Shown piece by piece: positions 25,881-41,744 of a DNA stretch of 64,000 nt; the stretch's first letter is position 1, and each line of letters starts with the position of its first letter. The stretch is from NCBI GenBank assembly GCA_944388865.1, contig CALXKM010000021.1, forward strand, positions 5,482 to 69,481, read 5' to 3'. Below the pieces are notes generated by a model. The model did not search any database. It was not told the DNA's origin and saw nothing but the letters and a program-made list of their open reading frames with translations. This DNA comes from an uncultured Duodenibacillus sp. GTDB taxonomy: Bacteria; Pseudomonadota; Gammaproteobacteria; Burkholderiales; Burkholderiaceae_F. The translations under genes and the position numbers were made by a program.

Positions 25881-26422
25881 AAATCCCTGTTGAGTTTGAT
25901 GAATATGAATCAACCGTTGCTGAATGTTCTTTTGATAAGGAGAACAAAAAGCCGTTGGTCGACAGCAATGAGGCAATGATTAATTTTGATGAAGTTGCGC
26001 AAGCTTATCCTAGTGAAGTTCAAATGGATTCGGTGCCTGCTTCGGCTGACGGCTTGTTTCTTGATGCAGACGGAAAGTATGTGTTTGCTGAATTTAAATC
26101 AGGAAAGCCAGATAGGTGGGAGATTCTTAGGAAAGGAGTAGACTCTGCGATCGTTTTGATTGATAAAAAGAATAAGACTATTGCATGGTTGCGTGAAAAT
26201 GCTGAATTTATACTGGTATATCCAGAGTTGCCGACCGCCTCAAATGATAGGCAGATAGAGACGTCAGAGGATTTGAATAGAGATTCGAGAAACAGGCTTT
26301 TCATGAAGGGAACAGCCAATGCGACGAATCAGATTCGTTTGTATACCCAGGGCTTAAAAGGGTATCTGTATAAAAATGTTTACGAAATGTCTCCCGAAAG
26401 ATTCAAAAAGCAATATTGTTAA
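25877..26422 (+). CDS. Hypothetical 181-aa protein with a PD-(D/E)xK-like motif, translationally coupled to the upstream ATPase
   Basis: Its ATG overlaps the ATPase stop as ATGA (25877-25880). It shares the islet's AT-rich composition. The motif is SADGLFLDADGKYVFAEFKSG (D58...E72-F-K74). I cannot recognise a family by eye. Confidence 0.6.
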   Translation: MKIPVEFDEYESTVAECSFDKENKKPLVDSNEAMINFDEVAQAYPSEVQMDSVPASADGLFLDADGKYVFAEFKSGKPDRWEILRKGVDSAIVLIDKKNKTIAWLRENAEFILVYPELPTASNDRQIETSEDLNRDSRNRLFMKGTANATNQIRLYTQGLKGYLYKNVYEMSPERFKKQYC

Positions 26423-26455
26423 GATCAATAATTTTGGGGATCCACGGGGGCTGCA

Positions 26456-27241
26456 TTAATTTTTGAGTTTGTAGCCTTTAACAAAAAGTGCTGTCGCAGC
26501 AGCAAGAAGCGCAACCGAGGCGGCCGCAACGATCGACAATGACAGCCATGGCGCGAAGTCGCTTTTGCCGAAAAAGCCGTAGCGAAAGCCGTCGATCATG
26601 TAAAAGAAGGGATTAAAAAGCGAGGCTTTGGCCCAAAAGGGAGGCAATTGCGAGACCGAATAAAAGACGCCCGAAAGAAACGTCAGCGGCAAGATGACAA
26701 AAGTCTGAAACGCTCCCATTTGATCGTACTTTTCTGCCCATAGTCCGCAGATGACGCCCAGGCTTGCCATGATGACTGAGCCCAGCACGGCAAAGAGCAC
26801 GATCCACAATGGATGTTTCAAGGCAGGAATGCTCCAGAAAAACGCTGCCAAAAGAACGCCCGTACCCACAATCAGGCCACGCACGACAGAGGCCGCAATA
26901 TAGGCTGCGGCAAGCTGCCAGCCTGAAAAAGGAGGCAGCAGCACGAAGACCATGCTGCCGGTGATCTTGGACTGCAAGATGGAAGAGGCAGAATTGGCAA
27001 AGCTATTTTGTAAAAGCGTCATCATCACCAAGCCAGGGATGAGAAAATCGATGTAGGAGACGCCTTCGAGAACCGTCATTTTGCCTTCGAGCACTCCGCC
27101 GAAAACAAGCAGATACAGCGTCGAGGTGAGAATCGGGGCGAGCACCGAGTGCAGGGCAATTTTTCTAAAGCGCAGAATCTCCTTTTCAAAGAGAGTGAAA
27201 AAGGCGGCGCGGCTGTTGTAGGCTAGGGGCTGAGGCTGCAT
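26456..27241 (-). CDS. yadH: ABC-2 type transporter permease YadH-like
   Basis: Collinear with E. coli YadH as I recall it: FLIPGLVMM...LPLTFLSGVFYS...LPPFW...NPFFYMIDGFRYGFFG. Confidence 0.88.
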   Translation of the reverse strand: MQPQPLAYNSRAAFFTLFEKEILRFRKIALHSVLAPILTSTLYLLVFGGVLEGKMTVLEGVSYIDFLIPGLVMMTLLQNSFANSASSILQSKITGSMVFVLLPPFSGWQLAAAYIAASVVRGLIVGTGVLLAAFFWSIPALKHPLWIVLFAVLGSVIMASLGVICGLWAEKYDQMGAFQTFVILPLTFLSGVFYSVSQLPPFWAKASLFNPFFYMIDGFRYGFFGKSDFAPWLSLSIVAAASVALLAAATALFVKGYKLKN

Positions 27242-27251
27242 GGCGTGTGGC

Positions 27252-28163
27252 CTATTTTGCGGTAAGGCGCAGAAAAACTTCTTCTAAATTGGCTTGCCCG
27301 ACATGCACGACTTCCATATCGACGCGAGCTTGCTGCAAGGTAAAAAGTACGTTGCAGAGCGCTCCGGCATTCTCAAATGATGTGCACCAAAGATTGTCTT
27401 TGACGTGCTCAAAGACGTAGGGCGTGTTGTTGGGAATGTCGCCCGAGATCAACCTGAACTGCAGGCGGTTTCCGGAAAATCGTCTAAGCAGCATTGCGGT
27501 GTCGTCAACGGCGGCGACTTTTCCCTTGTTTAAGAGCGCTATGCGCCGGCACAAGGCTTGCGCTTCTTCAAGGTAGTGCGTTGTGAGCACAATGGTATGG
27601 CCTTGGGCATGGAGCTCTTTCATGAAGTCCCAGATGCGGTGTCGAAGTTCGATGTCTACGCCTGCCGTCGGCTCATCGAGCACGATGACGGGAGGCTTGT
27701 GCACCAGCGCCTGCGCAATGAGAACGCGCCGCTTCATGCCGCCAGAAAGCCTAGAGACGCGGGCATCAGCCTTGTCCGCAAGACCCAGTTTTTCGATGAG
27801 CGTGCTGATCCACTTTTCGTTGTTCCTTAGACCATAGTAGCCGCTTTGCTGGCAAAGAATTTCATTCACAGTAAAGAAAGGATCAACCGTGATTTCCTGC
27901 GGCACGATGCCGACGGCCATTTTGCAAAACCGCCAGTCGCGCACCGTATCTCTGCCCAGAACCTCAATGGTGCCGCCATCTGGCTTGATCAAAGAACCCA
28001 AAGCAGAAATAAGCGTGCTTTTTCCTGCACCGTTGGGGCCTAGAAGACCAAAGAATTCGCCTTCAAAAACATCAAGCGAGACGTCTGAGAGCGCAATTGT
28101 GGCGTGTCCGCCTCGACGGTAGGCTTTACTCAAATGTCTGATCGATAAAGCGGCTTTGCTCAC
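27252..28163 (-). CDS. yadG: ABC transporter ATP-binding protein YadG-like
   Basis: GLLGPNGAGKST, LSGGMKRRVLIAQAL, VLDEPTAGVDIELR and LTTHYLEEA, collinear with E. coli YadG as I recall it. Confidence 0.92.
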   Translation of the reverse strand: MSKAALSIRHLSKAYRRGGHATIALSDVSLDVFEGEFFGLLGPNGAGKSTLISALGSLIKPDGGTIEVLGRDTVRDWRFCKMAVGIVPQEITVDPFFTVNEILCQQSGYYGLRNNEKWISTLIEKLGLADKADARVSRLSGGMKRRVLIAQALVHKPPVIVLDEPTAGVDIELRHRIWDFMKELHAQGHTIVLTTHYLEEAQALCRRIALLNKGKVAAVDDTAMLLRRFSGNRLQFRLISGDIPNNTPYVFEHVKDNLWCTSFENAGALCNVLFTLQQARVDMEVVHVGQANLEEVFLRLTAK

Positions 28164-28654
28164 GCTTTCTCCTTGGGTTGAAGCGCGAGAAGGGCTTTTT
28201 GTCTAGCTTGGTGCCATTCGTTTTCGTGCTTTTTAACAAAATCAACTAGAGCAGCTGCTACGGCGATGGATTCTTCTGAGGCCTCAGCAGCATGGGCTTT
28301 GGCTGCCTTGCGGGCAGCGTCTGTGGCGAGTCCAATGACCTCAGAGAAAAATACTTCAAGCGCTTTTCGCTTCTCGTGCAGAAGCTTGCCAAGGATGAGT
28401 CCGTCTGCAGTCATCTCCAGAGGACCGTAGGGGTAGTAGTTGATAAGTCCCAGAGCTTTGAGCGAGCGCATGGTCGCAGCAACCGTCGCGCGCGAGACGC
28501 CTGCGGTTTGCGCTATGGAACAGCCTCGGGCAACGCCTGTTTTGAGCTGCTCTTCGTAGATGATTTCCAAGTAATCGGCCTGAGCAGCGGTGAGCTCGGG
28601 CAAATTGTCCAGATCGAGGTGTTCGTGAGACGTGTGCTGCGGCAACGAGGGCAT
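28160..28654 (-). CDS. DtxR/MntR-family metal-dependent transcriptional regulator
   Basis: Starting from ATG 28654, the N-terminal wHTH reads AQADYLEIIYEE...SIAQTAGVSRATVAATMRSLKALGLI, followed by a dimerisation helix GLILGKLLHEKRKALEVFFSEV. Its stop overlaps the yadG start by 4 nt. Confidence 0.8.
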   Translation of the reverse strand: MPSLPQHTSHEHLDLDNLPELTAAQADYLEIIYEEQLKTGVARGCSIAQTAGVSRATVAATMRSLKALGLINYYPYGPLEMTADGLILGKLLHEKRKALEVFFSEVIGLATDAARKAAKAHAAEASEESIAVAAALVDFVKKHENEWHQARQKALLALQPKEKA

Positions 28655-28720
28655 GATGAACGAATGCGAAATGCTTCTCAGTTTGACATTGTCGAGATTA
28701 TAGCGATATACTCGCCGCAC

Positions 28721-28738
28721 TGTTAGTTGCAACTAACA
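28721..28738. promoter_or_regulatory. Perfect 18-bp palindrome, candidate operator in the divergent regulator/chuW intergenic region
   Basis: TGTTAGTTGCAACTAACA equals its own reverse complement. It lies 67 nt upstream of the DtxR-like gene and 57 nt upstream of chuW. The half-site TTAGTTG loosely recalls DtxR/IdeR-type TTAGGTTAG half-sites. Confidence 0.5.
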
Positions 28739-28753
28739 ATGAGAATGAGTATC
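28738..28753. promoter_or_regulatory. Fur-box-like sequence upstream of the haem locus
   Basis: AATGAGAATGAGTATC matches 13 of 16 positions of AATGATAATCATTATC, the 3' 16 nt of the E. coli Fur consensus (hand alignment). It abuts the palindrome. Confidence 0.4.
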
Positions 28754-28794
28754 ACTTATTGCAATGAATCAAATCTTTAAAAGCACGCCTATCC

Positions 28795-30216
28795 ATGCAA
28801 AGTCAGCTTTCCACGCAGAAGCAACATGCGCAAAGCTCTGCAACGTTTGAATCCGGCGCTTTGGTCATGCGCGAAAAATTGCGCTCGCATGCCGCTGAGG
28901 CCTATTACGCCAACGCAAAAGATCCGCTGCATGCTGCATTTCAAGCCAAGGCAGTCATTCATTCCGGTCCTAAGGACATGCCGGTGATGGGTGTGGAGGC
29001 AAGAAGCGCTTTTGATGCGCTTGCAAATGAACCGCGCTCGGGAAAATGTCTGGCCTACATCCATGTGCCGTTTTGCGAGACGCGCTGCCTATATTGCCTT
29101 TTTTACCAAAACCCTTACAAGCCTGAAGAGTCAAGTGCGTTTGCCTCGCGCCTTATCCGAGAGCTTGAGCTCACCAGCAAAAAAATCTCGCAAAGCTGCG
29201 CTCCCGTGCATGCGGTCTACTTCGGGGGAGGCACGCCGACGGCATTGGAAGCAGACGACTTAAAGCGCATATTGAAGGCCTTGCCTAAATATCTGCCCTT
29301 GGCCAACGACTGCGAAATCACGATTGAGGGCCGCATTCACAACTTCACCGACGAGAAGATGGAGGCTGCGCTCGAAGGCGGAGCCAACCGATTCTCGCTT
29401 GGCATTCAAAGCTTCAACAGCAAGGTGCGTCAGTCCGTGATGCGCGTTGATGATCGAGACACGCTTATTGCCAGACTTGAAAAACTCATTTCTTATGACA
29501 ATGCAGCCGTTGTGATGGATCTCATCTACGGCTTTCCCGGACAGAGTCTTGAGGTTTGGGAAGATGACCTCAAAACGGCCGCAAGCCTGGCTCTTGACGG
29601 CGTGGACTGCTATCAGCTCAACGTGTTTGAAAAGTCGCCCTTGGCCAAATACATCGCCAACGGCAAGCTGCCCGCAGCGGCCGACTCAGCCATGAAGGCC
29701 GACATGTTTGCCATGTCGGTTGAGCACTTTACCAATGCGCAGTGGCGCAGGCTCTCCAACAACCACTGGGGGCGCACAACGCGCGAGCGCAACATATACA
29801 ACGCGCTTGGCAAAAGCGCCTGCGATTGTCTGGCCTTTGGATGCGGCGCAGGCGGGCGCTTAAAGGGCCACAGCTTCATGCTTGAGCGAAAGCTTTCAGA
29901 CTGGGAAGCGCTCATTGATGCCGGGCAAAAGCCTGTGTGGGTTCTCACGCGGCCGGGGCCGCACTGGTACATGCTGCGCACCGTCAGCGCGGCCATGGAG
30001 TCGGGGGCGGCCAATCTCGCTTCAATTGGCCGCGAGTACGGCCTGCCGGTCGATGACATCACGCGTCCCGTGACCGATCAGTGGATCGAAGCCGGGCTTC
30101 TTGTGCGCACTGGCGAGTGGCTTGTGCAGACCGTGGCAGGTCAGTACTGGCACGTGACGCTCGCGCAGCTTTTGATTGATTTTCTTTCCCGGCGCTTGGT
30201 CAAAGAAGAGGCATAA
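28795..30216 (+). CDS. chuW: Radical SAM HemN-like protein, probable anaerobic haem-degrading methyltransferase ChuW/HutW
   Basis: CxxxCxxC radical SAM motif in YIHVPFCETRCLYCLFYQ. HemN-like body of 473 aa. It is the first gene of a locus that also encodes a haem-type TonB receptor and ChuX/HutX. Confidence 0.8.
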   Translation: MQSQLSTQKQHAQSSATFESGALVMREKLRSHAAEAYYANAKDPLHAAFQAKAVIHSGPKDMPVMGVEARSAFDALANEPRSGKCLAYIHVPFCETRCLYCLFYQNPYKPEESSAFASRLIRELELTSKKISQSCAPVHAVYFGGGTPTALEADDLKRILKALPKYLPLANDCEITIEGRIHNFTDEKMEAALEGGANRFSLGIQSFNSKVRQSVMRVDDRDTLIARLEKLISYDNAAVVMDLIYGFPGQSLEVWEDDLKTAASLALDGVDCYQLNVFEKSPLAKYIANGKLPAAADSAMKADMFAMSVEHFTNAQWRRLSNNHWGRTTRERNIYNALGKSACDCLAFGCGAGGRLKGHSFMLERKLSDWEALIDAGQKPVWVLTRPGPHWYMLRTVSAAMESGAANLASIGREYGLPVDDITRPVTDQWIEAGLLVRTGEWLVQTVAGQYWHVTLAQLLIDFLSRRLVKEEA

Positions 30217-30368
30217 GAGGCGAAATTTTTCATATTGCTTTCAAAGAGCAGTTTTTTCACACCCCTTCTTTTTGATCAACCGCAGGAGTTTGCAGCGACA
30301 GGCTTCTAAAACGAAGGTTCCAAACAAAGAGAACCAACCAGAGTCTGTCCTAAACCGAAGGAAGAAGC

Positions 30369-32489
30369 ATGCAATTTAATGAAGTCAAAATCGCGCTGGC
30401 CGTTTCTGCGGCACTTGCAAGCATCGTAGCGCAGGCGCAGGAATCGGTGACGACCGAAGAGGTTAGGGTGACGGCTAGCCGCGTTGAGCAGGAGCTTTTG
30501 GATGTCCCAATGTCGGTTTCTGTGATTGCCGAAGATGAAATTCGACATTCAAAGGCTAGAAACGTGGGCGAGCTTCTTGAAACTGTTCCCGGAGTCCGAA
30601 TTCTCAATGACGGCAGCCAGGGCATGAAGCGCGTCATGATTCGCGGCGAAGATTCTTTCCGGACGGTGGTGATGATTGACGGTCAGCGAATCTCTGAGCA
30701 TAAGTCGATGTCGGGCGCCCCCATTCTGATTGATCCTTCGATGATTGAGCGCATTGAAGTCATCAAGGGACCGGCCTCTGTGCTCTACGGTTCAGACGCC
30801 ATTGGCGGCGCAATCAACATCATTACGAAAAAAGGAGGAGGAGACAAATTTAATGCGGAAGTCTCCGCGGGCTTTAACTCCTCGGCAAGCGGCAAGAGCG
30901 CAGCGGCTTCCATTTACGGCAGCATCGGAAAACTGGACTATCGCTTGTCGGCTGCCGTAGAGGACAGCGAAGAGCTCGAAACGCCCTACGGAAAAGTGCC
31001 TTACACGGCATTTTCTTCCAAATCGGCGTCACTGTACTTGGCCTACAACCTGACCGAAAACACAAAAGTAGGCGTGACGGCCGATACGTATGATCTGGAC
31101 TTTATGTCCGGCGTACAGGACGATTCCTATTCTGATTTTTTTGTTGATGTGCCCAAGTGGCATCGCACGAAAGGGGCCCTTTTTCTGGAGTCGAAGAATT
31201 TGACGGAAAATCTGGTGCGTCTGCGAGCTGATGCTTTTTATCAGCAAAGCAACAAGGACATGCACAACCGCGTCTACGTGTATGTCAAGCCGGTGGCTGC
31301 CATGCCTTTTCCCATGGTTGATCAAAAAATGGACAACTATGCTGAAAATGAGCTGGCTCAGACCGGTTTTTCGCTGCAGACCGACTGGCAGCTGGGCGAC
31401 AACCATTATCTGATTGCCGGCTATGAGTTTTTGTACGACGATTTGAAGAAGGCTTTTTCGCTTTACCACAGCAAAACGTTTTCCCTCATGAACGGGATGG
31501 GCTATTCCTGGACGACGCATGCAGAAGATCACGAGGGCTTTCAGCAGATGCACTCCCTGTATCTGGCCATGGACAGCACCCTCACCGATTCCGTGACATT
31601 AAACTACGGCGTTCGCTACACCTGGGTGCGCTCGGAGGTGAGTTCTGCCGACGGCGAATCAGTTTCCACCGGCACCTATCCTGTTTTGCCCGCACAGCCC
31701 GCCTCGCCCGTCTTGGGAGAATCGAGCACGCTTGATTCGAGCGACAGTCGCCCTGTCTTTAATTTCGGCGTCAACTGGCGTCCTTACGACAATATGGCGC
31801 TGAGGGCCACCTGGGCGCAGGGCTTTCGCGTTCCCAATCTGATGGAGCGCTATATCCCGACATCCATGGGTGGAGGGCAAGTTTTAGCCAATCCCAACCT
31901 TGATCCCGAAACTTCAAATAATTTTGAGATCGGGCTTCGCCTGACTCCTAAAAACATCAATTTGGATCTTGCCGTGTTCTATAGCGACGCCAACGACTAC
32001 ATCTCTTCGTTTGAAGTGGCCGACGGCATTTATCAAAACAGAAACGTCTCAGGGGCAAAGACATACGGCGTCGAACTGTCAGCAAGTTATCACTTTGACA
32101 ACGGTTTTGAACCCTATGTCACGGGAACATACATTCGTCGCAAATTTGAACAGGACGGCGTTTCGACATACGACTCCGGCACGCCCGAAATTTTTGGGCG
32201 TTGGGGCGTACGTTGGGGAGGATCGCTGGCCGGGCTTGATTTGAGGGCAGATGCTTATGCCGTCACTCAGAGTGCGACAAAACAGTTCCAGTTTGATGAA
32301 GACGGCACGACAACCGAGTACGGCGGTTCAACGTACTACAACTTGACGATGGGCGTCGGCTTTGGGCCTAAGAATGCCTACAGCATTGATGTCGGCTTGT
32401 ACAACATTACCGACAAGGCCTACAAAACAAGCGATGCGATTTATGAGCCGGGGCGCTATTTCATGGTCAAGGCGAGCGCAAGGTATTAA
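30369..32489 (+). CDS. TonB-dependent outer-membrane receptor, haem/haemoprotein type
   Basis: Signal peptide MQFNEVKIALAVSAALASIVAQA, TonB-box-like EEVRVTASR, and a plug domain (IEVIKGPASVLYGSDAIGGAINIITK). FRAP/NPNL-like boxes: FRVP (31824-31835) and NPNL (31890-31901). Aromatic C-terminus ...ASARY. Confidence 0.9.
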   Translation: MQFNEVKIALAVSAALASIVAQAQESVTTEEVRVTASRVEQELLDVPMSVSVIAEDEIRHSKARNVGELLETVPGVRILNDGSQGMKRVMIRGEDSFRTVVMIDGQRISEHKSMSGAPILIDPSMIERIEVIKGPASVLYGSDAIGGAINIITKKGGGDKFNAEVSAGFNSSASGKSAAASIYGSIGKLDYRLSAAVEDSEELETPYGKVPYTAFSSKSASLYLAYNLTENTKVGVTADTYDLDFMSGVQDDSYSDFFVDVPKWHRTKGALFLESKNLTENLVRLRADAFYQQSNKDMHNRVYVYVKPVAAMPFPMVDQKMDNYAENELAQTGFSLQTDWQLGDNHYLIAGYEFLYDDLKKAFSLYHSKTFSLMNGMGYSWTTHAEDHEGFQQMHSLYLAMDSTLTDSVTLNYGVRYTWVRSEVSSADGESVSTGTYPVLPAQPASPVLGESSTLDSSDSRPVFNFGVNWRPYDNMALRATWAQGFRVPNLMERYIPTSMGGGQVLANPNLDPETSNNFEIGLRLTPKNINLDLAVFYSDANDYISSFEVADGIYQNRNVSGAKTYGVELSASYHFDNGFEPYVTGTYIRRKFEQDGVSTYDSGTPEIFGRWGVRWGGSLAGLDLRADAYAVTQSATKQFQFDEDGTTTEYGGSTYYNLTMGVGFGPKNAYSIDVGLYNITDKAYKTSDAIYEPGRYFMVKASARY

Positions 32490-32574
32490 AGCAAACGCCT
32501 GAGCCGGCGAGAAGACTTCAAAGAGGGTGTTTCTTCAAGAAGCTTCTCGCCGGGGCAATGAAGTAGCAAAGAGC

Positions 32575-33120
32575 ATGAACAATATGTTGAAAACACGACA
32601 CTGGTACGCCCGCGAGCTTGTTTTGATCGGCGTTTTTGCCGCCGCAGCCAAGCTCTCGAGCCTTTTGATCGCACTGGCGGGCGGCGGCATGAACCCGGTG
32701 AGCCTCATTGCAAAGAACCTGGTGTACACGACGCTTGTGATCGTGCTGCTCACTAAGGTGCCTAAGCCCGGCACACTGCTTCTGTTTACGCTCATCAGCA
32801 TGATCGTGAGCATTTGCCTGCTGGGCGGAAGCCTAACTTTGCTGCCGGCAGCTTTTGCGGGTGCGATGGCGGGAGAAATCTTCATGTGGCTTGCGGGCGG
32901 AACCAAGCGTCTCTGGGCTCCCTGGGTCGGCGTTGCGGTCTACGACCTTGTGAGCAAAGGGCTTTCGCTCATTGTTTCGTATCTATTTATGCGCGAGTCA
33001 CCGGCATTGATGACGGTGGTGGTGCCCATTGTGCTTTGCGGCTATGCGGGTTCTCTCGGAGGGCTTTGGTTTGCCGTCAAAACGGTAGGAGAGTTAAGAC
33101 ATGCGGGCTTTGTTCGCTAA
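32575..33120 (+). CDS. Small polytopic membrane protein, putative ECF transporter S (substrate-capture) component
   Basis: About 181 aa and 5-6 hydrophobic helices. It overlaps the EcfT-like gene start by 20 nt. The size and topology fit S components. The family assignment (MptD/Trep_Strep-like) is a guess. Confidence 0.6.
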   Translation: MNNMLKTRHWYARELVLIGVFAAAAKLSSLLIALAGGGMNPVSLIAKNLVYTTLVIVLLTKVPKPGTLLLFTLISMIVSICLLGGSLTLLPAAFAGAMAGEIFMWLAGGTKRLWAPWVGVAVYDLVSKGLSLIVSYLFMRESPALMTVVVPIVLCGYAGSLGGLWFAVKTVGELRHAGFVR

Positions 33121-33889
33121 GGGGGCGGCGGCTTCGTGCCTTTTGAGGTTTCTCGATGTGCGCACCAAAATCGTCGTCATTGCAGCAACTGCGGTTGCGA
33201 CTCTGGCTGCCTCAGGGCTTGCGGCGCAGCTGGTGCTTTTTGCGGCAACGCTTGTCTATGCTTTGTTTTTAAAGCGCGCAAAGCTTTTGGCCGTTCTCTA
33301 TGCGCTGATGGCCGCCATGATGGCCATTGCCGCCGTCTGCGCCTGGGGACTTCAGACGTGGCTGCCGCAGATGGGAGAGCTCAACATTCATGCGCTTGTG
33401 ATTCCTTTTTTGCGCGGACTTTCTATGATGAACGCGGTCATCGTGCTGGCGATGACGACGCGCGTCGAGGATCTGCTTTCAACTTTGGAGCGCATGCGGC
33501 TGCCGTTTTGCATCTTTCTGCCCACGGCCGTGATGCTTCGCTTTGTGCCCACGTTTGCCAATGACATCAAGCAGGTGTGGGAGACGCTTCGCATCAAGGG
33601 CTGGCCGCTGGGGCCTGCGATGTTTACGCGGCATCCCATTTTGTCTGCGCGCTTGATTTTGGCTCCCATTCTTTTTCGCGCCTTAAAGAGTTCCGAGACG
33701 CTTGGCGTTGCAGCCGAACTCAAAGGCATGGGCTCGCGCGAGAGAACCGTGCTCGTTGACGCCAAAACGATGACAAGTCTTGATGCGCGCGTGTACTCCG
33801 TGCTGCTTTTGACGCTTGTTTTCGTCGCTGCAGCCGAAGTGCTTCTCGCCGACTTGTGGATGCCGACGGGCTCACAGCTGATGCCCTAA
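33101..33889 (+). CDS. ECF transporter transmembrane (T) component, EcfT/CbiQ family
   Basis: 262 aa, multi-TM, with a CbiQ-like layout and C-terminal coupling-helix region ...ILFRALKSSETLGVAAELKGMGSRE. RBS aggagag precedes ATG 33101. Confidence 0.8.
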   Translation: MRALFAKGAAASCLLRFLDVRTKIVVIAATAVATLAASGLAAQLVLFAATLVYALFLKRAKLLAVLYALMAAMMAIAAVCAWGLQTWLPQMGELNIHALVIPFLRGLSMMNAVIVLAMTTRVEDLLSTLERMRLPFCIFLPTAVMLRFVPTFANDIKQVWETLRIKGWPLGPAMFTRHPILSARLILAPILFRALKSSETLGVAAELKGMGSRERTVLVDAKTMTSLDARVYSVLLLTLVFVAAAEVLLADLWMPTGSQLMP

Positions 33890-33903
33890 AAAGGAGCTTT
33901 GAC

Positions 33904-35394
33904 GTGAAGCCGGAAATCAAGTTTGAAAACGTCTCCTACACCTACGCCAATCAGAAGCACCCTGCCTTGCAGAACGTTTCGCTCACGGTGACCGCAGGCG
34001 AACTCAAGGTCGTCACTGGCGCTTCTGGGTGCGGCAAAACAACGCTCATGCGGTTGGCCAACGGCTTGTGCCCGCAAATTTACGGAGGTGCTGTTAAGGG
34101 ACGCGTGACGGTCTCGGGGCTTGATGTCTCGCACACGCCAGTTGCCGAGCTCTCTGAAGTGATCGGCACGCTTTTTCAGGATCCCGAAGAGCAGTTTTTT
34201 GCCTTAAGCGTGGGAGACGAAATTGCTTTTGCCTTAAGAAGCCGCGGCGTGCCGGCCCCGGAAGTCATCGAGCGCACAAGACGAGCTGCAGATAGGCTTG
34301 CCATCGGCCATCTGCTCGGTCAAGACATTCATGCGTTGTCTGAAGGACAAAAGCAAAAGGTGGGGCTCGCGGCCATTTTGGCCTTGGGGCCTAAGGTGCT
34401 TATTTTTGACGAGCCAAGCGCCAATCTCGATCCCGAGTCCACAGAGGCGCTTGCGTTCACGATGGCTGAACTCAAGCGCGAGGGCGCTGCCATTTTGGTG
34501 GTCGACCACAGACTGTACTGGCTTAAAAACGTTGCCGACAGCGTTTGCGTGATGTCGCGCGGGAAAATCGTCTTTGAGCGCGAATTTTCCGTCTTGAATA
34601 ATGCCGAGCTGAGAAAAGCCTGGGGACTGCGCCAGGCCGAAGTGCCCGACATGCGTCGGGTGCTGCCGCGGGTTAGGACGGCCGTGGGCAAGAATGTGCA
34701 AAGCGAGCGCACCTTTTTCAGCGCGCAGCGCATGAGCTTTGCCTATGACGAAAATCATCAGATTTTTAAGTTGGCAAGCTTTTGCATCGAACCCGGCGTG
34801 ACGGCTTTGATCGGCGACAACGGAACGGGCAAGACGACGCTTGCGCGCATTTTGACGGGACTAAATCAGGCACAGGGCGACTTTTTTATCAAAGGCCGCA
34901 AAGTTGGGCGCGACGGCCTGATGCCGCACGCGGGCCTTGTGCTTCAAAACGCTGATCACCAGCTGCAGATGCGCACGGTTCAGGAAGAGGTGCAAAGCGC
35001 CTGCGCCGCGGGAGAGCTTCTCAAACATGGACGTTTTGAACTGTGGAGGCGCTCGCTTGGCGCAAAAGATTTTGCGCACTACCGCGAAAAAGTCGACGAG
35101 ATTCTTGCCCGACTGCGGCTGTCGCACTTAGCAGAGCGCCATCCGCAGAGTCTTTCGGGCGGGGAAAAGCAGCGCGTCGTGATTGCCTGCGCAATTGCCA
35201 AGAACCCGGCAGTTCTTATTCTTGATGAGCCCACAAGCGGCCTTGACGGGGCAAACATGGCAGCCATTGCAGAGCTTTTAAAAAATCAAGCGCAAAAAGG
35301 CACGGCTGTTTTTCTGATTACGCACGATCTGGAACTGATGCAGATCTGCGATTGGGCGATTGACATGAAGTCGCTTCAATCAAGCGCGGCTTGA
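33904..35394 (+). CDS. ECF/ABC transporter ATP-binding protein with two fused ATPase domains (EcfA1-EcfA2-like)
   Basis: Two Walker A motifs (GASGCGKTT, GDNGTGKTT), signatures LSEGQKQKV and LSGGEKQRV, and Walker B motifs LIFDEPSANLD and LILDEPTSGLD. The likely start is GTG 33904, behind aaggag. The track ORF starts at 33856. Confidence 0.9.
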   Translation: MKPEIKFENVSYTYANQKHPALQNVSLTVTAGELKVVTGASGCGKTTLMRLANGLCPQIYGGAVKGRVTVSGLDVSHTPVAELSEVIGTLFQDPEEQFFALSVGDEIAFALRSRGVPAPEVIERTRRAADRLAIGHLLGQDIHALSEGQKQKVGLAAILALGPKVLIFDEPSANLDPESTEALAFTMAELKREGAAILVVDHRLYWLKNVADSVCVMSRGKIVFEREFSVLNNAELRKAWGLRQAEVPDMRRVLPRVRTAVGKNVQSERTFFSAQRMSFAYDENHQIFKLASFCIEPGVTALIGDNGTGKTTLARILTGLNQAQGDFFIKGRKVGRDGLMPHAGLVLQNADHQLQMRTVQEEVQSACAAGELLKHGRFELWRRSLGAKDFAHYREKVDEILARLRLSHLAERHPQSLSGGEKQRVVIACAIAKNPAVLILDEPTSGLDGANMAAIAELLKNQAQKGTAVFLITHDLELMQICDWAIDMKSLQSSAA

Positions 35395-35428
35395 GAAAAG
35401 ATTTTTTCAACATCAAAGGACAAACAAT

Positions 35429-35965
35429 ATGCAGCACACCACTGCAACGGCTCAGGAAGAGCAAAAGATTCAAGAACTGATGAAAGCGCCTTTTCCGGTG
35501 ACGCTCTCAACGGTGGCCAAAGCTCTGCAGACGACCGAACTTGAGGCTGCGGCCAAGATGCCCGAAGGCGTCGTTAGTTTCGTGAGCGGCAACGTTGCCG
35601 AGCGGTTCGATGAAATTTGGGCAGAACTCGCTCAATGGGAAAAGGCGACGCTTTTCATCGTGCACGACGGCCACGTCTTTGAGATTCAGGGAAAGCTCCA
35701 CACGGGCAAGCGCGCAAGAGGCTACTACAACATCCTTGCCAAGGATGCCGTCATCGGCGGACACCTTCGCTATGAGGGCATCGCGGCGTGCGCTTTTACA
35801 AACTTTCCCTTCATGGGGCGCGAGTCGCTAGCCGTGCAGTTTTTCAATCAGGCGGGTGAAGTGAGTTTTTCGGTGTATGTTGGACGCGAAAATCATCAAT
35901 TGATCGAATCTGTGCGCGAAGCGTTTTTTGCTGCGCAAAGCCGCTTTTGCAGCAAGCTTGAATAA
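35429..35965 (+). CDS. chuX: Haem utilisation cytosolic carrier protein ChuX/HutX family
   Basis: 178 aa. The length, the pattern ...WEKATLFIVHDGHVFEIQGKL..G....GYYNI...GHL and the locus context all fit ChuX/HutX. Confidence 0.85.
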   Translation: MQHTTATAQEEQKIQELMKAPFPVTLSTVAKALQTTELEAAAKMPEGVVSFVSGNVAERFDEIWAELAQWEKATLFIVHDGHVFEIQGKLHTGKRARGYYNILAKDAVIGGHLRYEGIAACAFTNFPFMGRESLAVQFFNQAGEVSFSVYVGRENHQLIESVREAFFAAQSRFCSKLE

Positions 35966-35977
35966 GGAGAAAAAGTG

Positions 35978-36478
35978 ATGAAAACGTTGATTGTGGTGAG
36001 TTCCAAAACTGGAAATACATTGCTTTTGGCCCATGGCATCTGCGATGCCTTAAAGGATTGCGACTTGGTTGAGGCCTCTTCAGTTCCCGAAGATCTCTCT
36101 GAGTACGGCGCTGTGCTTCTTGGCTTTTGGTGTGATCGCGGCATGGCTCCCGAGGACATGCAAAAAGCCGCGCGCGGCATTCATGGAAAGCGCATCGGGT
36201 GCTTTGCCACCATTGGCGGCGATCCGCAGTCAGATTGGGCGCGCAAGTGGATGGATAAGACGTCTCAAGAGCTTGCCGCATTGGGCGAAGGCAATACGCT
36301 TGAGGCAACCTTCATGTGCCGTGGGCGCATTGATCCTGCCGTTTTCGAGATGATGACCAAGATGGCCGGCGGCACCGTGACGCCCGAGCGTGAGGCTCGC
36401 CGACAGGCAAGCGAAACGCATCCTGACCGAATGGACGTGCTGCGTGCGGCAGAAGTATTCGGCCGGATGCTGGGATAA
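35978..36478 (+). CDS. Flavodoxin-family protein
   Basis: MKTLIVVSSKTGNT is the FMN phosphate-binding loop (S/T-x-T-G-x-T). About 166 aa. GTG 35975 is an alternative start. Confidence 0.85.
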   Translation: MKTLIVVSSKTGNTLLLAHGICDALKDCDLVEASSVPEDLSEYGAVLLGFWCDRGMAPEDMQKAARGIHGKRIGCFATIGGDPQSDWARKWMDKTSQELAALGEGNTLEATFMCRGRIDPAVFEMMTKMAGGTVTPEREARRQASETHPDRMDVLRAAEVFGRMLG

Positions 36479-36506
36479 AAACGATCGGTTGCGGAGGAAA
36501 GAGAAA

Positions 36507-37169
36507 ATGCAATTTTCTGCCGAGCGTTTTTCCTACATCTACTCGATGATTGGTCCTGCGGGCGTCGCGCTCGTCTTCGTCGCTCTTTTTGCTGTTTATA
36601 TCGCCGTCTGGCAGCTTTTGTACATGTCGGCCGTCTGGCGCAACTTTCGCAGAGACTTTCTTGACTTGGAGCGAGGCAGCGACAGGTGTCTGAAGGATAT
36701 TGATCCTAAACGGGCCAACCCGCTCATTCGCATCATCTACGAGATCGTCAAGACGCACGGCTCGCACTCTGACGACATTCGAGCGGAGGTTGGCTACCTC
36801 TTTCACCGCAACTTCAAGCGCGTCACGAACGGCCTTTGCTGGCTCAAGCTCATATCGGTCATTTCGCCTCTTTTGGGGCTGCTTGGAACCGTGTGGGGGA
36901 TGGTTGACGTGTTTCAGAGCTTGGCCGACATCACGCGCGCCAACGCATCGCTTCTGGCCTCAGGCATCTGGTCAGCGCTTTTGACGACCATCATGGGCTT
37001 GACGATCGCCATACCGACGTTGATGAGCTACTACTACCTGATGCTCAAATTCAGGGGTTTTCACATTGAGGCCATTGAGCACAGCTACCGTGCTCTGGAA
37101 GTGTGCCGCGGCATGGGACCCTTAAAGCGCAGCCCTGCCGTCAAGGCGCATGACACGGATTTGATTTAG
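36507..37169 (+). CDS. exbB: MotA/TolQ/ExbB proton-channel protein ExbB
   Basis: Starting from ATG 36507 (behind ggagga), it has three TM segments. Conserved C-terminal region LGLLGTVWGMV..F......A....LASGIWSALLTTIMGLTIAIP. Confidence 0.9.
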   Translation: MQFSAERFSYIYSMIGPAGVALVFVALFAVYIAVWQLLYMSAVWRNFRRDFLDLERGSDRCLKDIDPKRANPLIRIIYEIVKTHGSHSDDIRAEVGYLFHRNFKRVTNGLCWLKLISVISPLLGLLGTVWGMVDVFQSLADITRANASLLASGIWSALLTTIMGLTIAIPTLMSYYYLMLKFRGFHIEAIEHSYRALEVCRGMGPLKRSPAVKAHDTDLI

Positions 37170-37186
37170 GCGCAAAGGAAACTGCG

Positions 37187-37618
37187 ATGGACAGCAATTT
37201 TTTCGGTAATTTTGATGAAGAGCCGCAGATTGATCTCACGCCTTTGATCGACTGTCTATTCATGCTCATCATTTTTTTTGTGCTGACGATGACGTTTTCT
37301 CGTCCCGTGCTGGAGATTGTTTTGCCTGAAGCCGTGCATGCCGAAGCAAGCGGGAAAAGAGACGAGATTCTTTTAAACGTCAAGTCCGACGGCACGTTTT
37401 GGCTTGATCAAGAGCGTCAGGTGACGCTTGTAGAGTTGGCCTCAGAGCTTGATGCCAATCCGCAGAAGCTTCTTAACATCTACATGGACAAAGAGGCCGA
37501 TTTTGGGGTTTTCGTTTCAGTGCTTGATTTGGCCAAAGACAAGCGCGAAGGCCGCTTTGTGATCAGCACCAAGCAAGAAGATGTTGCAGAAAATGCCCAA
37601 GAAAGCTCCCAAAATTAA
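37187..37618 (+). CDS. exbD: Biopolymer transport protein ExbD
   Basis: Characteristic N-terminus ...PQIDLTPLIDCLFMLIIFFVLT. 143 aa. Follows exbB. Confidence 0.9.
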   Translation: MDSNFFGNFDEEPQIDLTPLIDCLFMLIIFFVLTMTFSRPVLEIVLPEAVHAEASGKRDEILLNVKSDGTFWLDQERQVTLVELASELDANPQKLLNIYMDKEADFGVFVSVLDLAKDKREGRFVISTKQEDVAENAQESSQN

Positions 37619-38405
37619 CGCCCAGCGCGAAGCGCTAGCGGCGGCTCGAGGGGCTCGCGGCGTGCTCGCCGCATTTGCAGCAGCCTTGATTGCTGCCGTC
37701 GGTATGAACAGCGTTACGCAGGCCATTTCCGTGCCGAGCCTTCCGTCGGGCGTGATGCGCCAAAAAATCGTGGTGCCTCTCGTGGAAGAACCGCTGGCGG
37801 CGCAAAAGCCCAACGAAACGCTCATTGAATACACGGTCGCCAAAAGCGATTTTCAGATCGAAAAGAAAATTGCTGAGCCTGTCATTGAGTCAAAGCCGGA
37901 ACCCAAACTTGAGCCTAAGCCCGTTCCTAAGCCGAAGGTGCGCCCCAAACCCGCGCCCAAGCCCAAGGCTCAGCCTAGGCCTCAGCCTCAGTCGGAGCCT
38001 AAAGCAGTCGTGCAAAAAGTAAATGAATCCCTGGCAAGCGAGGTCAAAAGCACGGGCTCAGATGCTGTCGGCGCTTCAGGCGGCGTCGGCCTTTCCGCTG
38101 GTTCCAATTTGGGGCGAGCAAAACAGGCTCGAGAAAGTGCTCTGGCCGTGATCGTCAACGTGATTGAGGCCAATAAAAGCTACCCGCGCAGGGCGCGGCA
38201 GACAGGCGTCGAAGGCAAGGTGCTGCTTACGGTCCGCATCGCAGCCGGAGGTTTGATCTCTTCCGTTGATGTTAAGAAAAAGCATCGCTCGGCGCTCTTA
38301 AACCGTGCAGCGGCAAGAGCGGCCAACAAGCTGTTGGGCATGCGCATTGAAGGTGCGCCGCAGATGACGGTGGATGTGCCGGTCGTGTTTTCCTTGCAGG
38401 ATTGA
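37581..38405 (+). CDS. tonB: Energy transducer TonB
   Basis: N-terminal anchor, then the Pro/Lys-rich spacer KPEPKLEPKPVPKPKVRPKPAPKPKAQPRPQPQSEP. The C-terminal TonB domain reads YPRRARQTGVEGKVLLTVRIAAGG. The start could be ATG 37581 or 37593. Confidence 0.88.
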   Translation: MLQKMPKKAPKINAQREALAAARGARGVLAAFAAALIAAVGMNSVTQAISVPSLPSGVMRQKIVVPLVEEPLAAQKPNETLIEYTVAKSDFQIEKKIAEPVIESKPEPKLEPKPVPKPKVRPKPAPKPKAQPRPQPQSEPKAVVQKVNESLASEVKSTGSDAVGASGGVGLSAGSNLGRAKQARESALAVIVNVIEANKSYPRRARQTGVEGKVLLTVRIAAGGLISSVDVKKKHRSALLNRAAARAANKLLGMRIEGAPQMTVDVPVVFSLQD

Positions 38406-38439
38406 ACTCAATGTTGTCAGTCGCAAATTTCCACCTACA

Positions 38440-38492
38440 GAACTGTCATAGCGAAAAATATGCAATTTTCGCTATGACAGTTCCGAATTTTT
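38440..38492 (+). terminator. Perfect 18-bp-stem hairpin plus T-run downstream of tonB (probable operon terminator)
   Basis: GAACTGTCATAGCGAAAA-atatgcaa-TTTTCGCTATGACAGTTC (38440-38483), followed by cgaaTTTTT. It begins 35 nt after the tonB stop. Confidence 0.45.
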
Positions 38493-38767
38493 CTGGGACT
38501 GAAAAAATAGCTGACTTCATTAATCGAGATTTGGAAAGGAATGTCGCGGCGGCAACGCCGCCCGCAACTGTCGACATCATCGGATTGCATCGCTGCGGCA
38601 AGACGACCTTTTTGCGGCAGCAGGTCGAAACGCTTTCAGGCGAAATAAGGTGGTTCAACTGCGACTACGCCTCCGATGCAGAACAGCTGAGGATTGGATC
38701 AAAGAGCGACGCCGAAGCGCTTTTGCGGCTTGCTCCAAATATCGTCATTGATGAAGCGCAGCGCGTG
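38474..38767 (+). pseudogene. 5' fragment (about 98 codons) of an AAA_14/DUF4143-type ATPase gene, truncated
   Basis: MTVPNF...VDIIGLHRCGKTTFLRQ (Walker A)...NIVIDEAQRV (Walker B), and then similarity stops at about 38767. That is exactly where the convergent DUF4143 gene ends (stop 38771-38773). The rest of track ORF 38402..38950 is antisense to that gene. Confidence 0.5.
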
Positions 38768-38770
38768 GCG

Positions 38771-39988
38771 TTATTCGGACTTGAGAAGAAATTCGACCAA
38801 ATTTTGATGATCAATACCTTTGTAAGGACGCGCGATGGGATCAAGCGAGAGCACCAGTTTGGGATAGTTGTCCTGAACGCGGGCAAGCGGTTCAAACTCG
38901 CGCTTGAAAGTCTCTTCGCCGGCCAGCAGGTAGCAGACCTGCACATATAAGCGAGAGCCTCCTTTTTCGGCAACGAAGTCGATTTCCTTGCCGTCTTCGT
39001 CGCCGGTTTGAAGCGACCAGCCGCGCCGCTTTAATTCGATGCAGACAATGTTTTCGAGCACTTGATCAATGTTGAGAGCATTGCTGCCGGCAAATTATGC
39101 TTCTCGAAAGCCGTGATCGCAGGCGTACATTTTCGGTTGGAAGACAAAGATGCGTTTGCCTTTGGCATCAGTGCTTTCGAGTCGATGAAAAACGAACGCG
39201 TCAATGCCGGCTTTTATGTAGTCTAAAAGAGCATCCCGAGAAAGAGAAATTTTTTGAGATTTCAAATACTTTTCAATGCTGGCGGCGCTGATCCGATGCC
39301 CTGCCTGCTCGAGCAGATAGGCAAAGAGCTCTTCGAGCACGGCGCTTTGGCGAATGCCGCAGCGCTGGGCGACGTCGCGCAAAACGATGCTCTCAAAGGC
39401 GTCTCTCAGATAGAGGCGGCCAGCTTCGAGATTTGGGTACAAAGACAAGCCGGGCATGCCGCCCCAGGTAAGAAAGTCTTGCCATGTTTTCGAGAGCGGC
39501 TCTGCGGAATCAATCAGAAGGCGCGAGTCTCTAAACTCGGCAAACGAAAACGGAAAGACTTCGAATTGAAGCGTTCTGCCGGCAAGGTGCGTTGCTAGCT
39601 CGCCCGAGAGCAGCTTGGAATTTGAGCCCGTGATGAAAATGTCGCAAAGGTTCCTTGCCCTGAGCGAATTAATGCAGTCTTCCCAATCCTCGACGGTTTG
39701 AATTTCATCGAGCATGACTGTTGCTCGATTGGGCGTACGGGAGACGAAAGCTTCGATGTACTCATGCAGGGCCTGGGCGTTTTTCAAATTGCGTAGCCCG
39801 AAATCTTCGAAGTTAAGCTGCAGAAAAGAGTTTTTCGGCCGGTTCAGATGCAGCTGCATATCCGCAGCGATTAATCCGAGCAGCGTGGATTTTCCCGTAC
39901 GACGCAGTCCCGTGATGACCTTAATGAGACCATCGGTGTAGTAAGGACGAATTTGATCAATAATTGCAGCCCGGTTGATGATCGGCAC
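38771..39988 (-). pseudogene. AAA_14 + DUF4143 family ATPase gene interrupted by an in-frame TAA
   Basis: ORFs 39095..39988 (P-loop GLRRTGKSTLL, Walker B VMLDEIQ) and 38771..39061 (ENIVCIELKRRGW..., DUF4143-like C-terminus) are in the same frame. A single stop (TAA, 39095-39097) separates them. Read-through gives ...DHGFREA*FAGSNALNIDQVLENIVCIELKRRG. Confidence 0.8.
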
Positions 39989-40143
39989 GACTGTCTCCGA
40001 GGAAAGATTGATGGCGATAGAGAATCCAATATCATCGATTATAGTCGAAGGTGCTAGGATGTTTCGCTAACTCATCGATTACGATCGATGAGTTTGATCT
40101 TAAATAGGCAGAAACTGTAATGGCGAAAATTTCGAAATCACAT

Positions 40144-40186
40144 AAAAAAATGCGCCGCTTTGACTCCTAAGGAGCAAGCGGCGCAT
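40144..40186 (-). terminator. Rho-independent terminator of lysS
   Basis: On the minus strand: ATGCGCCGCTT-(15 nt)-AAGCGGCGCAT followed by TTTTTTT, about 30 nt after the lysS stop. Confidence 0.7.
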
Positions 40187-40217
40187 CAAAGACTTGCTGT
40201 GCTAAAGCAAATCAGAG

Positions 40218-41744
40218 TTAGGCGCACTCGGGACGCATGGCCGGAAAGAGCAGTACTTCGCGGATAGTCGAAGCGTTGGTCAGAAGCATCACGAAGCGGT
40301 CAATGCCGATGCCGCATCCAGCCGTGGGCGGCAGACCATATTCAAGCGCGCGGATGAAGTCTGCGTCGTAGAACATGGCCTCATCATCTCCGTGGCTCTT
40401 GGCGTCAGCCTGAGCCTGAAAGCGCCGTGCCTGATCTTCGGGATCATTTAATTCCGAGAAGCCGTTGGCGGTTTCGCGACCATAGATAAAGAGCTCAAAG
40501 CGCTCGGTCATCTCTGGGTTGGCGTCAGAAGCACGGGCAAGCGGGCTTACTTCGACCGGGTAGTTGATGATGAAGGTGGGCTGGATAAGCTTGGACTCGG
40601 CGGTTTCTTCAAAAAGCGCCATCACCAATGCGCCCAAGCCGACGTAGTCGGGCTGCGGGGCGCCCAGACGCTTGAGTTCAGCGCGCAAGAACGCTTCGTC
40701 TTTTAAGTTTTCGGCCGTGTATTGCGGCGCGTACTTCATGATGGCCTCTTCGGGCGTGAGCTGCGCAAAGGGCTTGGAGAGATCAATTTCGGTGCCCTGA
40801 TAGTTGATTACTTCAGAGCCTGTTGCTTCGCGCGCCACATGCCGCAAAAGCTTTTCGGTAAAGGCAATCTGATCGCGGTACGTCCAGTAGGTGGCGTAAA
40901 ACTCAATGGTCGTGAATTCAGGATTGTGGCGCGTATCGATGCCTTCGTTTCTAAAGCACCGGTTGAGCTCAAAGACGCGCTCAAAGCCGCCCACTACCAA
41001 ACGCTTTAAGTAAAGCTCAGGCGCAATGCGCAGATACTGATCGATGTCGAGCGCATTGTGGTGCGTAATGAAGGGCTTGGCATTTGCTCCGCCCGGAATC
41101 GGATTGAGCATCGGGGTTTCGACTTCCACGAAGCGGTGCTCTTCCATGTAGCGGCGGATGGCCGAAACGGCCTTAAAGCGCGTGAGAAAGCGCTCGCGGC
41201 TTTCCTCGTTGATGATGAGGTCTGTGTAGCGCTGGCGGCAGCACATCTCGGGATCAGAAAGCCCCTTGTGCTTGTCCGGCAGCGGCCTGAGCGACTTGGT
41301 GAGCAGGCGCAGCTTCTTGACGCGCACCGAAAGCTCGCCCTTGTTGGTGCGAAAGAGCGTGCCTTCGGCAGCGACGATGTCGCCCAAGTCAAGCGTCTTG
41401 AACATGGCATAGGCTTCAGGGCCCACGTCGTTTGCGCCGACAAAGTACTGCATGCTTCCCGTGAAGTCGCGCACGGTGGCAAAGCTTGCCTTGCCCATGA
41501 CGCGCTTGAGCATCATGCGCCCGGAAACAGCAACCTCTGGGGTGGCTTCTTCGAGTTCTTCGCGGCTCTTCTCGCCCCAAGCTTGGCGCAGGTCGCCGAA
41601 AAGGTCCTTGCGCACGAAGTCGTTGGGATAGGCAACGCCCGTCTCGCGCAAGTGCGCAAGCTTGGCGCGGCGCTCGGCGATGATGTGGTTTTCATCTTCG
41701 GCAGCAGCCGCGGCCGTCGTGCTCTTTGTATTTTCTTCGCTCAT
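40218..41744 (-). CDS. lysS: Lysine--tRNA ligase (class II)
   Basis: 508 aa. N-terminal ...[17 protein letters not shown]..., OB-fold, then the class II core (FVEVETPML, ...ELYLKRL..., [14 protein letters not shown]). Confidence 0.97.

Follow-up and report, generated by a model that had tools for sequence, protein, structure and literature searches.

In the textbook scheme of Gram-negative haem uptake, an outer-membrane receptor passes its substrate to a periplasmic binding protein, and a type II ATP-binding cassette (ABC) permease completes the route. To our knowledge, energy-coupling factor (ECF)-type haem importers have so far been described only in Gram-positive bacteria. The present analysis concerns a stretch of 64,000 nucleotides from an uncultured Duodenibacillus sp. 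(contig CALXKM010000021.1), which is called the window throughout, and an ECF-type module that it encodes within a haem locus. This module consists of a membrane-embedded S component, a T component, and a fused double ATPase.

Several described systems bear on this locus. LhaSTA of Staphylococcus lugdunensis is an iron-regulated ECF-type haem importer, the S component of which, LhaS, binds haem with spectra that suggest histidine ligation (PMC7299338). An earlier reading of the window, made from the sequence alone and referred to here as the original prediction, had named LhaSTA as a haem importer of this species, in agreement with that description. SiaFGH of group A Streptococcus is presented as an ECF-family haem importer encoded in a haem-uptake operon (Chatterjee et al. 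2020, J Bacteriol 202:e00205-20, as cited in PMC11282960). In proteobacteria, vitamin B12 can enter via the TonB-dependent receptor BtuB and then the S-component-like protein BtuM, with no periplasmic binding protein (PMC6072759). Finally, the haem locus of Fusobacterium nucleatum is organised as hmuTRUVWF (PMC10404700).

We propose, with a probability of roughly 0.75, that the S, T, and ATPase genes of the window encode an ECF-type importer of the dedicated (group I) kind, which carries haem and stands in for ChuTUV/HmuTUV in a self-contained operon for anaerobic haem utilisation. That haem is the substrate we infer from gene context; the original prediction likewise allowed for a different tetrapyrrole or metal chelate. 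Database annotation already gives the S protein a generic label. What is new is a very divergent clade of the LhaSTA family that sits behind a TonB-dependent receptor, is tied to the anaerobic breakdown of haem, and occurs widely among gut bacteria. A literature search, incomplete in its coverage, found no paper in which ChuW, HutW, or anaerobilin is connected with an ECF transporter or in which ECF haem uptake is described for diderms.

The S component is a protein of 181 amino acids encoded on the + strand at positions 32575 to 33120. Its open reading frame may begin at 32527 (GTG) or 32575 (ATG), and the N termini of homologues favour a start between 32575 and 32584. The protein belongs to the MptD/Trep_Strep family by its score on PF09605 (32.7 bits vs a gathering score of 28.7), a deltaproteobacterial member of its clade carries the NCBI name “MptD family putative ECF transporter S component,” and the T and ATPase genes always follow downstream. 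The original prediction had taken this protein for an S component on its shape, and these findings support it, as does the profile check that it had proposed for S families (LhaS and MptD/Trep_Strep), which places the protein in PF09605 and LhaS in the same family. No NCBIfam model matched the S protein in a scan of that collection. Six hydrophobic helices are predicted, spanning residues 12 to 37, 41 to 61, 67 to 83, 87 to 106, 115 to 138, and 143 to 177, and six helices also appear in both AlphaFold2 models (predicted local distance difference test [pLDDT] score of 76.4 from 22 sequences; pLDDT of 81.2 and predicted template modelling score [pTM] of 0.77 from 50 sequences). Lysine and arginine residues, as read from the sequence, are concentrated at the N terminus, in the loops between helices 2 and 3 and helices 4 and 5, and at the C terminus; by the positive-inside rule, this pattern fits a six-helix protein whose N and C termini are both cytoplasmic, the topology of S components.

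Homologues of the S protein number more than 814, and the clade around it is compact and well separated. When 1.84 billion representatives were searched with a profile, no more than 113 clusters (50% identity) reached an E value of ≤0.001, and core Trep_Strep proteins were only marginal in the same search. Conserved polar residues of the clade are W10, K26, M39, N40, K47, N48, E101, D124, R140, E141, Y157, and E173. A remote Trep_Strep member (P0224, in locus L089 at 3325 to 5600) overlaps the end of an Mg_chelatase/VWA gene, a context hinting at a tie to tetrapyrrole or metal-chelate handling in other branches of the family as well.

The T component (33101 to 33889, + strand) is an EcfT/CbiQ-type scaffold that scores 49.5 bits against 25 on CbiQ (PF02361). 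A comparison of the protein with PDB sequences gave no direct match. ECF T components contain two short coupling motifs of the Ala-Arg-Gly type, usually with arginine. Two conserved motifs of the T clade lie where these would be expected. The first reads E-x-L-[KR]-I-[RK]-G, with IKG in the window and IRG in most homologues. The second reads A-x-E-L-K-G, with an invariable lysine in the window clade, where LhaT and the T protein of a remote locus (L086) have RG. The T gene overlaps the S gene by exactly 20 nucleotides (33101 to 33120) and the ATPase gene by 34 nucleotides.

The ATPase gene (33856 to 35394, + strand; start codon uncertain) encodes a fused A-A' protein of 512 amino acids in which ABC_tran occurs twice (180.6 bits). 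Among NCBIfam models, those of ECF ATPases fit best, namely, ECF_ATPase_1 (TIGR04520, 298.5 bits) and the cbiO subfamily (239 bits, above 211.8), and CbiO and EcfA1 are the closest single-domain matches in the PDB (E value of ∼1e-34). In the N- and C-terminal halves, respectively, the Walker A motifs are GASGCGKT and GDNGTGKT, the signature motifs are LSEGQ and LSGGE, and the Walker B motifs are IFDEP and ILDEP; H-loops are present in both. Judged by these motifs, the catalytic apparatus is intact in both halves. The open reading frames and profile scans thus agree with the gene content and coordinates of the original prediction, which had described the genes between the receptor and chuX as those of an S-like protein, an EcfT/CbiQ-type T component with a 20-nucleotide overlap, and a double ATPase fused into one protein.

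The closest characterised relative of the module is LhaSTA. The LhaS sequence was obtained through the primer table of PMC7299338: a junction sequence was used in an exact-match scan of metagenome contigs, and two contigs were found. The recovered open reading frame, 194 amino acids long, starts with MKRQ and ends with RAGMI, both as the cloning primers demand, and a CbiQ gene follows it; on the second contig, the neighbour is an NEAT/LPXTG-type protein. LhaS scores 174 bits on PF09605, and its staphylococcal relatives bear the same NCBI name, MptD family. When the window clade (30 sequences) was aligned with the LhaS clade (17 sequences) by hhalign, the two matched over 165 columns, i.e., their full length, with a probability of 97% and an E value of 9.2e-11. 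The T components are also related (LhaT vs the window T protein: E value of 1e-12 and 24% identity). Both S clades have four motifs in common: G-x-x-x-A within the first helix, K-x-x-K-x-G-T-L behind the second, FMR(E/D)S behind the fifth, and (K/R)AG at the C terminus. By these profile comparisons, the S protein of the window is a distant relative of LhaS.

A second line of evidence comes from the conservation of the gene neighbourhood. A genome scan with the S protein, restricted to one genome per species, yielded 132 loci, of which 80 were kept, and synteny was counted only in loci long enough to judge. The order chuW-receptor-S-T-ATPase-chuX-flavodoxin-exbB-exbD(-tonB) holds nearly throughout the kept loci, in some 70 genomes, as determined by tblastn with the window proteins. 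Beside the S gene, a T gene was found in 76/76 loci, an ATPase gene in 73/73, a receptor gene in 68/72, and chuW in 65/67, and further genes of the cassette were similarly frequent (ChuX in 64/68, flavodoxin in 64/65, ExbB in 55/63, and ExbD in 53/60). Given these counts, the association is not due to chance. Independent gene calls with precomputed Pfam annotation give the same cassette.

The carriers among the kept loci are all gut diderm anaerobes. The closest locus (L001), with an S protein 98% identical to that of the window, is from an uncultured Duodenibacillus (Sutterellaceae, Betaproteobacteria); other carriers are Sutterella, Aphodousia, Mesosutterella, and Dakarella, the Desulfovibrionaceae Mailhella, Bilophila, and Desulfovibrio, and Mucispirillum of the Deferribacteres. 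Two loci (L010 and L011), with S proteins 76 to 77% identical to that of the window, are filed under Firmicutes bins (Oscillospiraceae and Acutalibacteraceae) and yet contain ExbBD and a TonB receptor; most likely, Sutterellaceae contigs have contaminated these bins. Remoter relatives retain much of the arrangement as well. In one (P0181; S protein 34% identical, L086), the order is receptor-radical S-adenosylmethionine (SAM) enzyme-S-T-ATPase, followed by a fusion of Flavodoxin_3 with ChuX_HutX, and in another (P0180; S protein 31% identical, L087 at 8020 to 14953 and L088), from an AT-rich organism, it is receptor-S-T-ATPase-ChuX-ExbB-ExbD. The latter loci are without chuW and lie beside an AraC/PocR-type regulator, and the organism has phosphotransferase system genes.

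The search for co-localised receptor, ECF, and chuWX genes that the original prediction had suggested therefore reveals conservation over three phyla and in remoter relatives too. Its description of the locus as an unusual hybrid is right in that an ECF module does lie behind a receptor, but the locus is not a one-off: it represents a widespread cassette of gut diderms, and BtuB plus BtuM set a precedent. Conservation of the cassette in at least three phyla suggests that haem can enter two-membrane bacteria by a route that needs no binding protein and has not been described before.

The genes on either side of the module connect it to haem degradation. Upstream, chuW (28795 to 30216, + strand) encodes a ChuW/HutW radical-SAM methyltransferase that degrades haem anaerobically (anaerobilin synthase; TIGR04107, 502 bits vs a cutoff of 400) and is 42% identical to ChuW of E. 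coli O157 (tblastn E value of 6e-104). It is followed by the gene for a TonB-dependent outer-membrane receptor, probably for haem (30369 to 32489, + strand; Plug, 101 bits; TonB_dep_Rec_b-barrel, 142 bits). Downstream of the module lie genes for a HutX/ChuX cytosolic haem carrier (35429 to 35965, + strand; TIGR04108, 126.7 bits, above 110; PF06228, 80 bits) and a Flavodoxin_3 protein (35975 to 36478, + strand; PF12641, 109.9 bits) related to the haem-binding flavodoxins FldH and HmuF. The only PDB sequence match of this flavodoxin is 8G64, F. nucleatum FldH, with an E value of 2.4e-7. The 8G64 structure is of haem-bound FldH, and its paralogue HmuF traffics haem to HmuW and reduces anaerobilin (PMC10404700). 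An HP motif in the C-terminal region is conserved in 65 homologues of the window flavodoxin, and 8G64 likewise has HP in a pairwise alignment. Both hallmarks of the ChuW/HutW pathway, a radical-SAM anaerobilin synthase and a HutX/ChuX protein, are thus present, with an FldH/HmuF-like flavodoxin instead of ChuY and ChuS. In the deltaproteobacterial version of the cassette, a single protein of 346 amino acids fuses Flavodoxin_3 to ChuX_HutX (L086, 8152 to 9192), which argues that flavodoxin and haem carrier work together.

The operon ends with its own energiser. ExbB (36507 to 37169, with an alternative start at 36390; PF01618, 87 bits), ExbD (37187 to 37618), and TonB (37581 to 38405; PF03544 TonB_C, 41.2 bits, above 24.6) are all encoded on the + strand. 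For ExbD, the best NCBIfam model is TIGR02804 (ExbD_2) at 43 bits, below its cutoff of 123.45, and the orthologue in another locus (L081) is annotated as Pfam ExbD. The block from chuW to tonB is bracketed by a near-consensus promoter (28683 to 28712) and a terminator-like hairpin with an 18-bp stem (38440 to 38483, + strand). From its gene families, the cassette is predicted to provide for entry at the outer membrane and the energy for it, import across the inner membrane, a carrier in the cytosol, ring opening without oxygen, and reduction of the product.

Several results weigh against haem import by this module or lend it no support. The related loci are for the most part from metagenome-assembled genomes. 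The receptor's best NCBIfam model is TonB-hemin (TIGR01785), at 236 bits and hence under the cutoff of 316.85. Identity between the S protein and the LhaS clade is just 19% in the hhalign alignment, and a search with LhaS alone against the window-clade profile was not significant (E value of 0.055). The LhaS clade has a His-containing insertion of ∼19 residues between helices 5 and 6, whereas the window clade is without it, and among 77 window-clade proteins, no histidine is conserved at ≥95%. Moreover, Foldseek comparisons of the two AlphaFold2 models with the PDB gave no significant match, the best E values being 0.59 and 0.66 (PnuC) with TM-scores of ≤0.38, and no S component was among the top 50 matches of either model; solved S components for fold reference are RibU, ThiT, BioY, FolT, CbrT, and BtuM. 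The Trep_Strep family itself has no member with a solved structure: PDB sequence searches with profiles of the window and LhaS S clades gave no usable match. PF09605 is not mentioned in the supplements of the paper on the S-component fold. Lastly, two loci (L055 at 5235 to 8255 and L058 at 9887 to 12900) contain S-T-ATPase genes, with an S protein 66% identical to that of the window, and no haem genes within reach. These loci may represent a second context or a paralogue. In both, which are Sutterella-like metagenome-assembled contigs, the module adjoins a 702-amino-acid, secreted-looking protein.

These observations lend some weight to the idea that haem is not what the ECF module imports and that the module, serving perhaps an iron chelate, a corrinoid, or a metalloporphyrin of another kind, merely shares an operon with haem degradation. 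The low score of the receptor on TonB-hemin, the distance of the S protein from LhaS and its lack of the His-containing loop, and Trep_Strep proteins in other settings (P0224 by Mg-chelatase/VWA and the two loci lacking haem genes) all speak for this reading. We nonetheless consider it unlikely. In ∼95% of judgeable loci, across three phyla, the module lies between the receptor gene and chuX with chuW upstream, in the exact slot that HmuTUV/ChuTUV occupy in the operons of Fusobacterium and E. coli (PMC10404700). In addition, ChuW and HutX are haem-specific families, both of which score over their cutoffs here, and the cassette holds no second inner-membrane importer.

A different concern is that a canonical binding protein and type II ABC transporter, encoded elsewhere, carry haem, with the ECF module being redundant, auxiliary, or dependent on a soluble periplasmic shuttle. 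To look for such genes, the proteins of the E. coli O157 chu locus were used as tblastn queries against the window and 82 loci (∼1.36 Mb). ChuW, ChuX, and ChuA matched their counterparts, but ChuT, ChuS, and ChuY had no match at an E value of ≤0.01, and a ChuU-like gene was present in only 1/82 loci (L065), where it lies outside the cassette, 8 kb upstream. Pfam scans of 30 other open reading frames of the window, and the precomputed Pfam annotation of the loci, detected neither Peripla_BP_2 nor FecCD. Within the operon itself, there is no binding-protein or FecCD gene; the statement in the original prediction that no substrate-binding-protein gene occurs in the locus thus holds for ChuT-type proteins and FecCD permeases by both tblastn and Pfam.

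The window's sole binding-protein-type importer is of the Opp/Dpp type (74 to 6824) and lies 25 kb away. It comprises an unusually long SBP_bac_5 protein (815 amino acids), two permeases, and a fused double ATPase. Dpp systems are able to carry haem in E. coli, and so this importer, like the ChuU-like permease of L065, is a point in favour of a canonical system elsewhere. Its binding protein, however, is of a family unrelated to haem-binding proteins. With no ChuT homologue in ∼1.36 Mb, a FecCD-type gene in only 1/82 loci, and a cassette so complete, from receptor and energiser through importer and carrier to the degrading enzyme, as to argue that it works on its own, we regard a canonical haem importer elsewhere as improbable, slightly more so than a substrate other than haem.

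Export of haem or anaerobilin by the module for detoxification is very hard to sustain: both free haem and anaerobilin are toxic and have to be dealt with (PMC10404700), and the operon would gain from an efflux step, but characterised ECF transporters are, as a matter of general family knowledge, all importers, LhaSTA included (PMC7299338), a separate ABC-2 pair linked to the cassette in Sutterellaceae is a better candidate for efflux, and without S-T-ATPase, the cassette would have no inner-membrane importer.

If the module is a haem importer, the pathway could run as follows. The TonB-dependent receptor, powered by the ExbB-ExbD-TonB complex of the operon, would move haem to the periplasm, where the membrane-embedded S component would take it up at the periplasmic face without a soluble binding protein. 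ATP hydrolysis by the fused A-A' protein, relayed through the T component, would then topple the S component and release haem into the cytoplasm. There, HutX/ChuX and the FldH-like flavodoxin would receive it, ChuW would open the ring without oxygen to free the iron, and the flavodoxin would reduce the toxic anaerobilin product.

Topology and conservation also suggest where the S component might hold its ligand. The predicted periplasmic loops contain G36-G-G-M-N-P41, G84, and F138-M-R-E-S-P. Candidate haem-binding residues are Met39/Asn40 in loop 1, Lys26, Lys47, Arg140/Glu141, and Tyr157; the conserved basic residues among them (K26, K47, and R140) might form pairs with the haem propionates, and an axial ligand could be M39 or Y157. 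A bolder and more tentative version of our proposal, to which we give somewhat less than even odds, is that in diderm anaerobes of the gut, from three phyla or more, the S component captures receptor-delivered haem directly by nonhistidine ligation (Met39 or Tyr157) and acts as the sole inner-membrane haem importer, so that the system would constitute a third diderm architecture for haem uptake, spread as a mobile cassette of ten genes.

The receptor shows a pattern of its own. Between the window and L001, which is otherwise near identical (94% DNA identity over the flanks 26419 to 30838 and 32590 to 43011), the barrel segment at 30839 to 32589 has no nucleotide match, and the receptor proteins are just 53% identical. 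That the plug has been kept and the barrel swapped suggests diversifying selection or recombination acting on the surface-exposed part. FRAP/NPNL boxes were considered as a mark of haem receptors and were set aside. They are present (FRVPNL...NPNL) but occur throughout the receptor superfamily, and the histidine that would be diagnostic is missing, as there is no His between the two boxes by inspection of the sequence.

Expression of the operon is probably controlled by a metal-dependent repressor of the DtxR/MntR family, encoded divergently from chuW (28160 to 28732, − strand; Fe_dep_repress, 29.9 bits, above 26), through a candidate TTAG-N6-CTAA operator. The real start of the repressor is probably the ATG at 28654; MntR models of NCBIfam score below cutoff, and a homologue of the repressor is linked to the cassette in 23 loci. 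The intergenic site (28683 to 28736, + strand) comprises a promoter-like TTGACA-18-TATACT, matching at 11/12 positions, and the palindrome TTAGTTGCAACTAA (28723 to 28736), which falls just downstream of the −10 element of chuW and overlaps the −35 element of a divergent promoter-like site. This palindrome is the window's only TTAG-N6-CTAA site. In 1.3 Mb of loci, 15/19 such sites lie ≤330 bp upstream of chuW, and 13/70 loci have one upstream of chuW vs 0.33 expected. The enrichment of such sites upstream of chuW is ∼45-fold and extends over several phyla. A Fur box upstream of chuW was also sought by eye, and the best candidate, a 12/19 match to the consensus, was unconvincing.

In the same transcription unit as the repressor lies the ABC-2-type exporter pair (26456 to 28163, − strand), consisting of a permease (26456 to 27241; ABC2_membrane, 107.9 bits) and an ATPase (27252 to 28163; ABC_tran, 118.8 bits). 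In 29 Sutterellaceae loci, an orthologous pair accompanies the cassette, in some upstream of it and in others behind tonB. The pair may be an accessory of the cassette for efflux of haem or anaerobilin.

Two other regions of the window are noted for completeness. A low-GC segment (24618 to 26422; 42.5% vs ∼54%) encodes an AAA_15/AAA_21 ATPase and a 181-amino-acid open reading frame without a Pfam family. Because it lies left of the start of the L001 alignment (26419), it is probably a strain-specific insert, perhaps related to defence. Farther upstream (6850 to 8731, − strand), an RloB-like protein is encoded beside an AAA_21 ATPase, a combination that resembles gene pairs of abortive-infection/OLD-type defence.

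Haem import by this module would have implications for the physiology of gut bacteria. The cassette would provide a route to haem and iron for abundant but little-studied organisms, namely, Sutterella, Duodenibacillus, relatives of Mailhella and Bilophila, and Mucispirillum, in a habitat where dietary and host haem are plentiful and oxygen is absent, and would do so with an entire pathway contained within ∼10 kb. A high-affinity membrane S component would do the work of the periplasmic shuttle where the cofactor is hydrophobic, much as BtuM does in the case of B12. Furthermore, the window clade would be a second, very divergent haem-linked branch of MptD/Trep_Strep, and comparing it with the LhaS branch should make the haem pocket easier to find.

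Like ChuA-ChuTUV of E. coli O157 and HmuR-HmuTUV, it combines a TonB-dependent receptor, ExbBD-TonB, ChuW/HmuW, and ChuX in a single haem locus, and the HmuF/FldH-type flavodoxin of Fusobacterium has a counterpart in the window. However, those systems have ChuT/HmuT and ChuU/HmuU, whereas the window has S-T-ATPase genes in their slot and is also without ChuS and ChuY. The proposed route also recalls BtuB/BtuM, in which a tetrapyrrole-type cofactor is likewise handled and a receptor gene is co-localised with a gene for an S-type protein. BtuM differs in that it is solitary, without T or ATPase partners, belongs to another sequence family, and serves B12, whereas the window encodes a complete ECF module in a haem context.

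Among ECF haem importers, SiaFGH is likened to the window module by its description rather than by sequence, and its host is a monoderm with no outer-membrane receptor. LhaSTA is similar to the window module in that S, T, and ATPase genes follow in this order in one operon within a haem-acquisition locus. Nevertheless, the two differ at each end of the pathway and in its control. LhaSTA acts behind Isd/NEAT surface proteins, is linked to IsdG-type oxygenases, and is iron regulated, whereas the module of the window clade is found in diderms behind a TonB-dependent receptor, is linked to anaerobic degradation by ChuW/HutX, and is accompanied by a regulator of the DtxR type.

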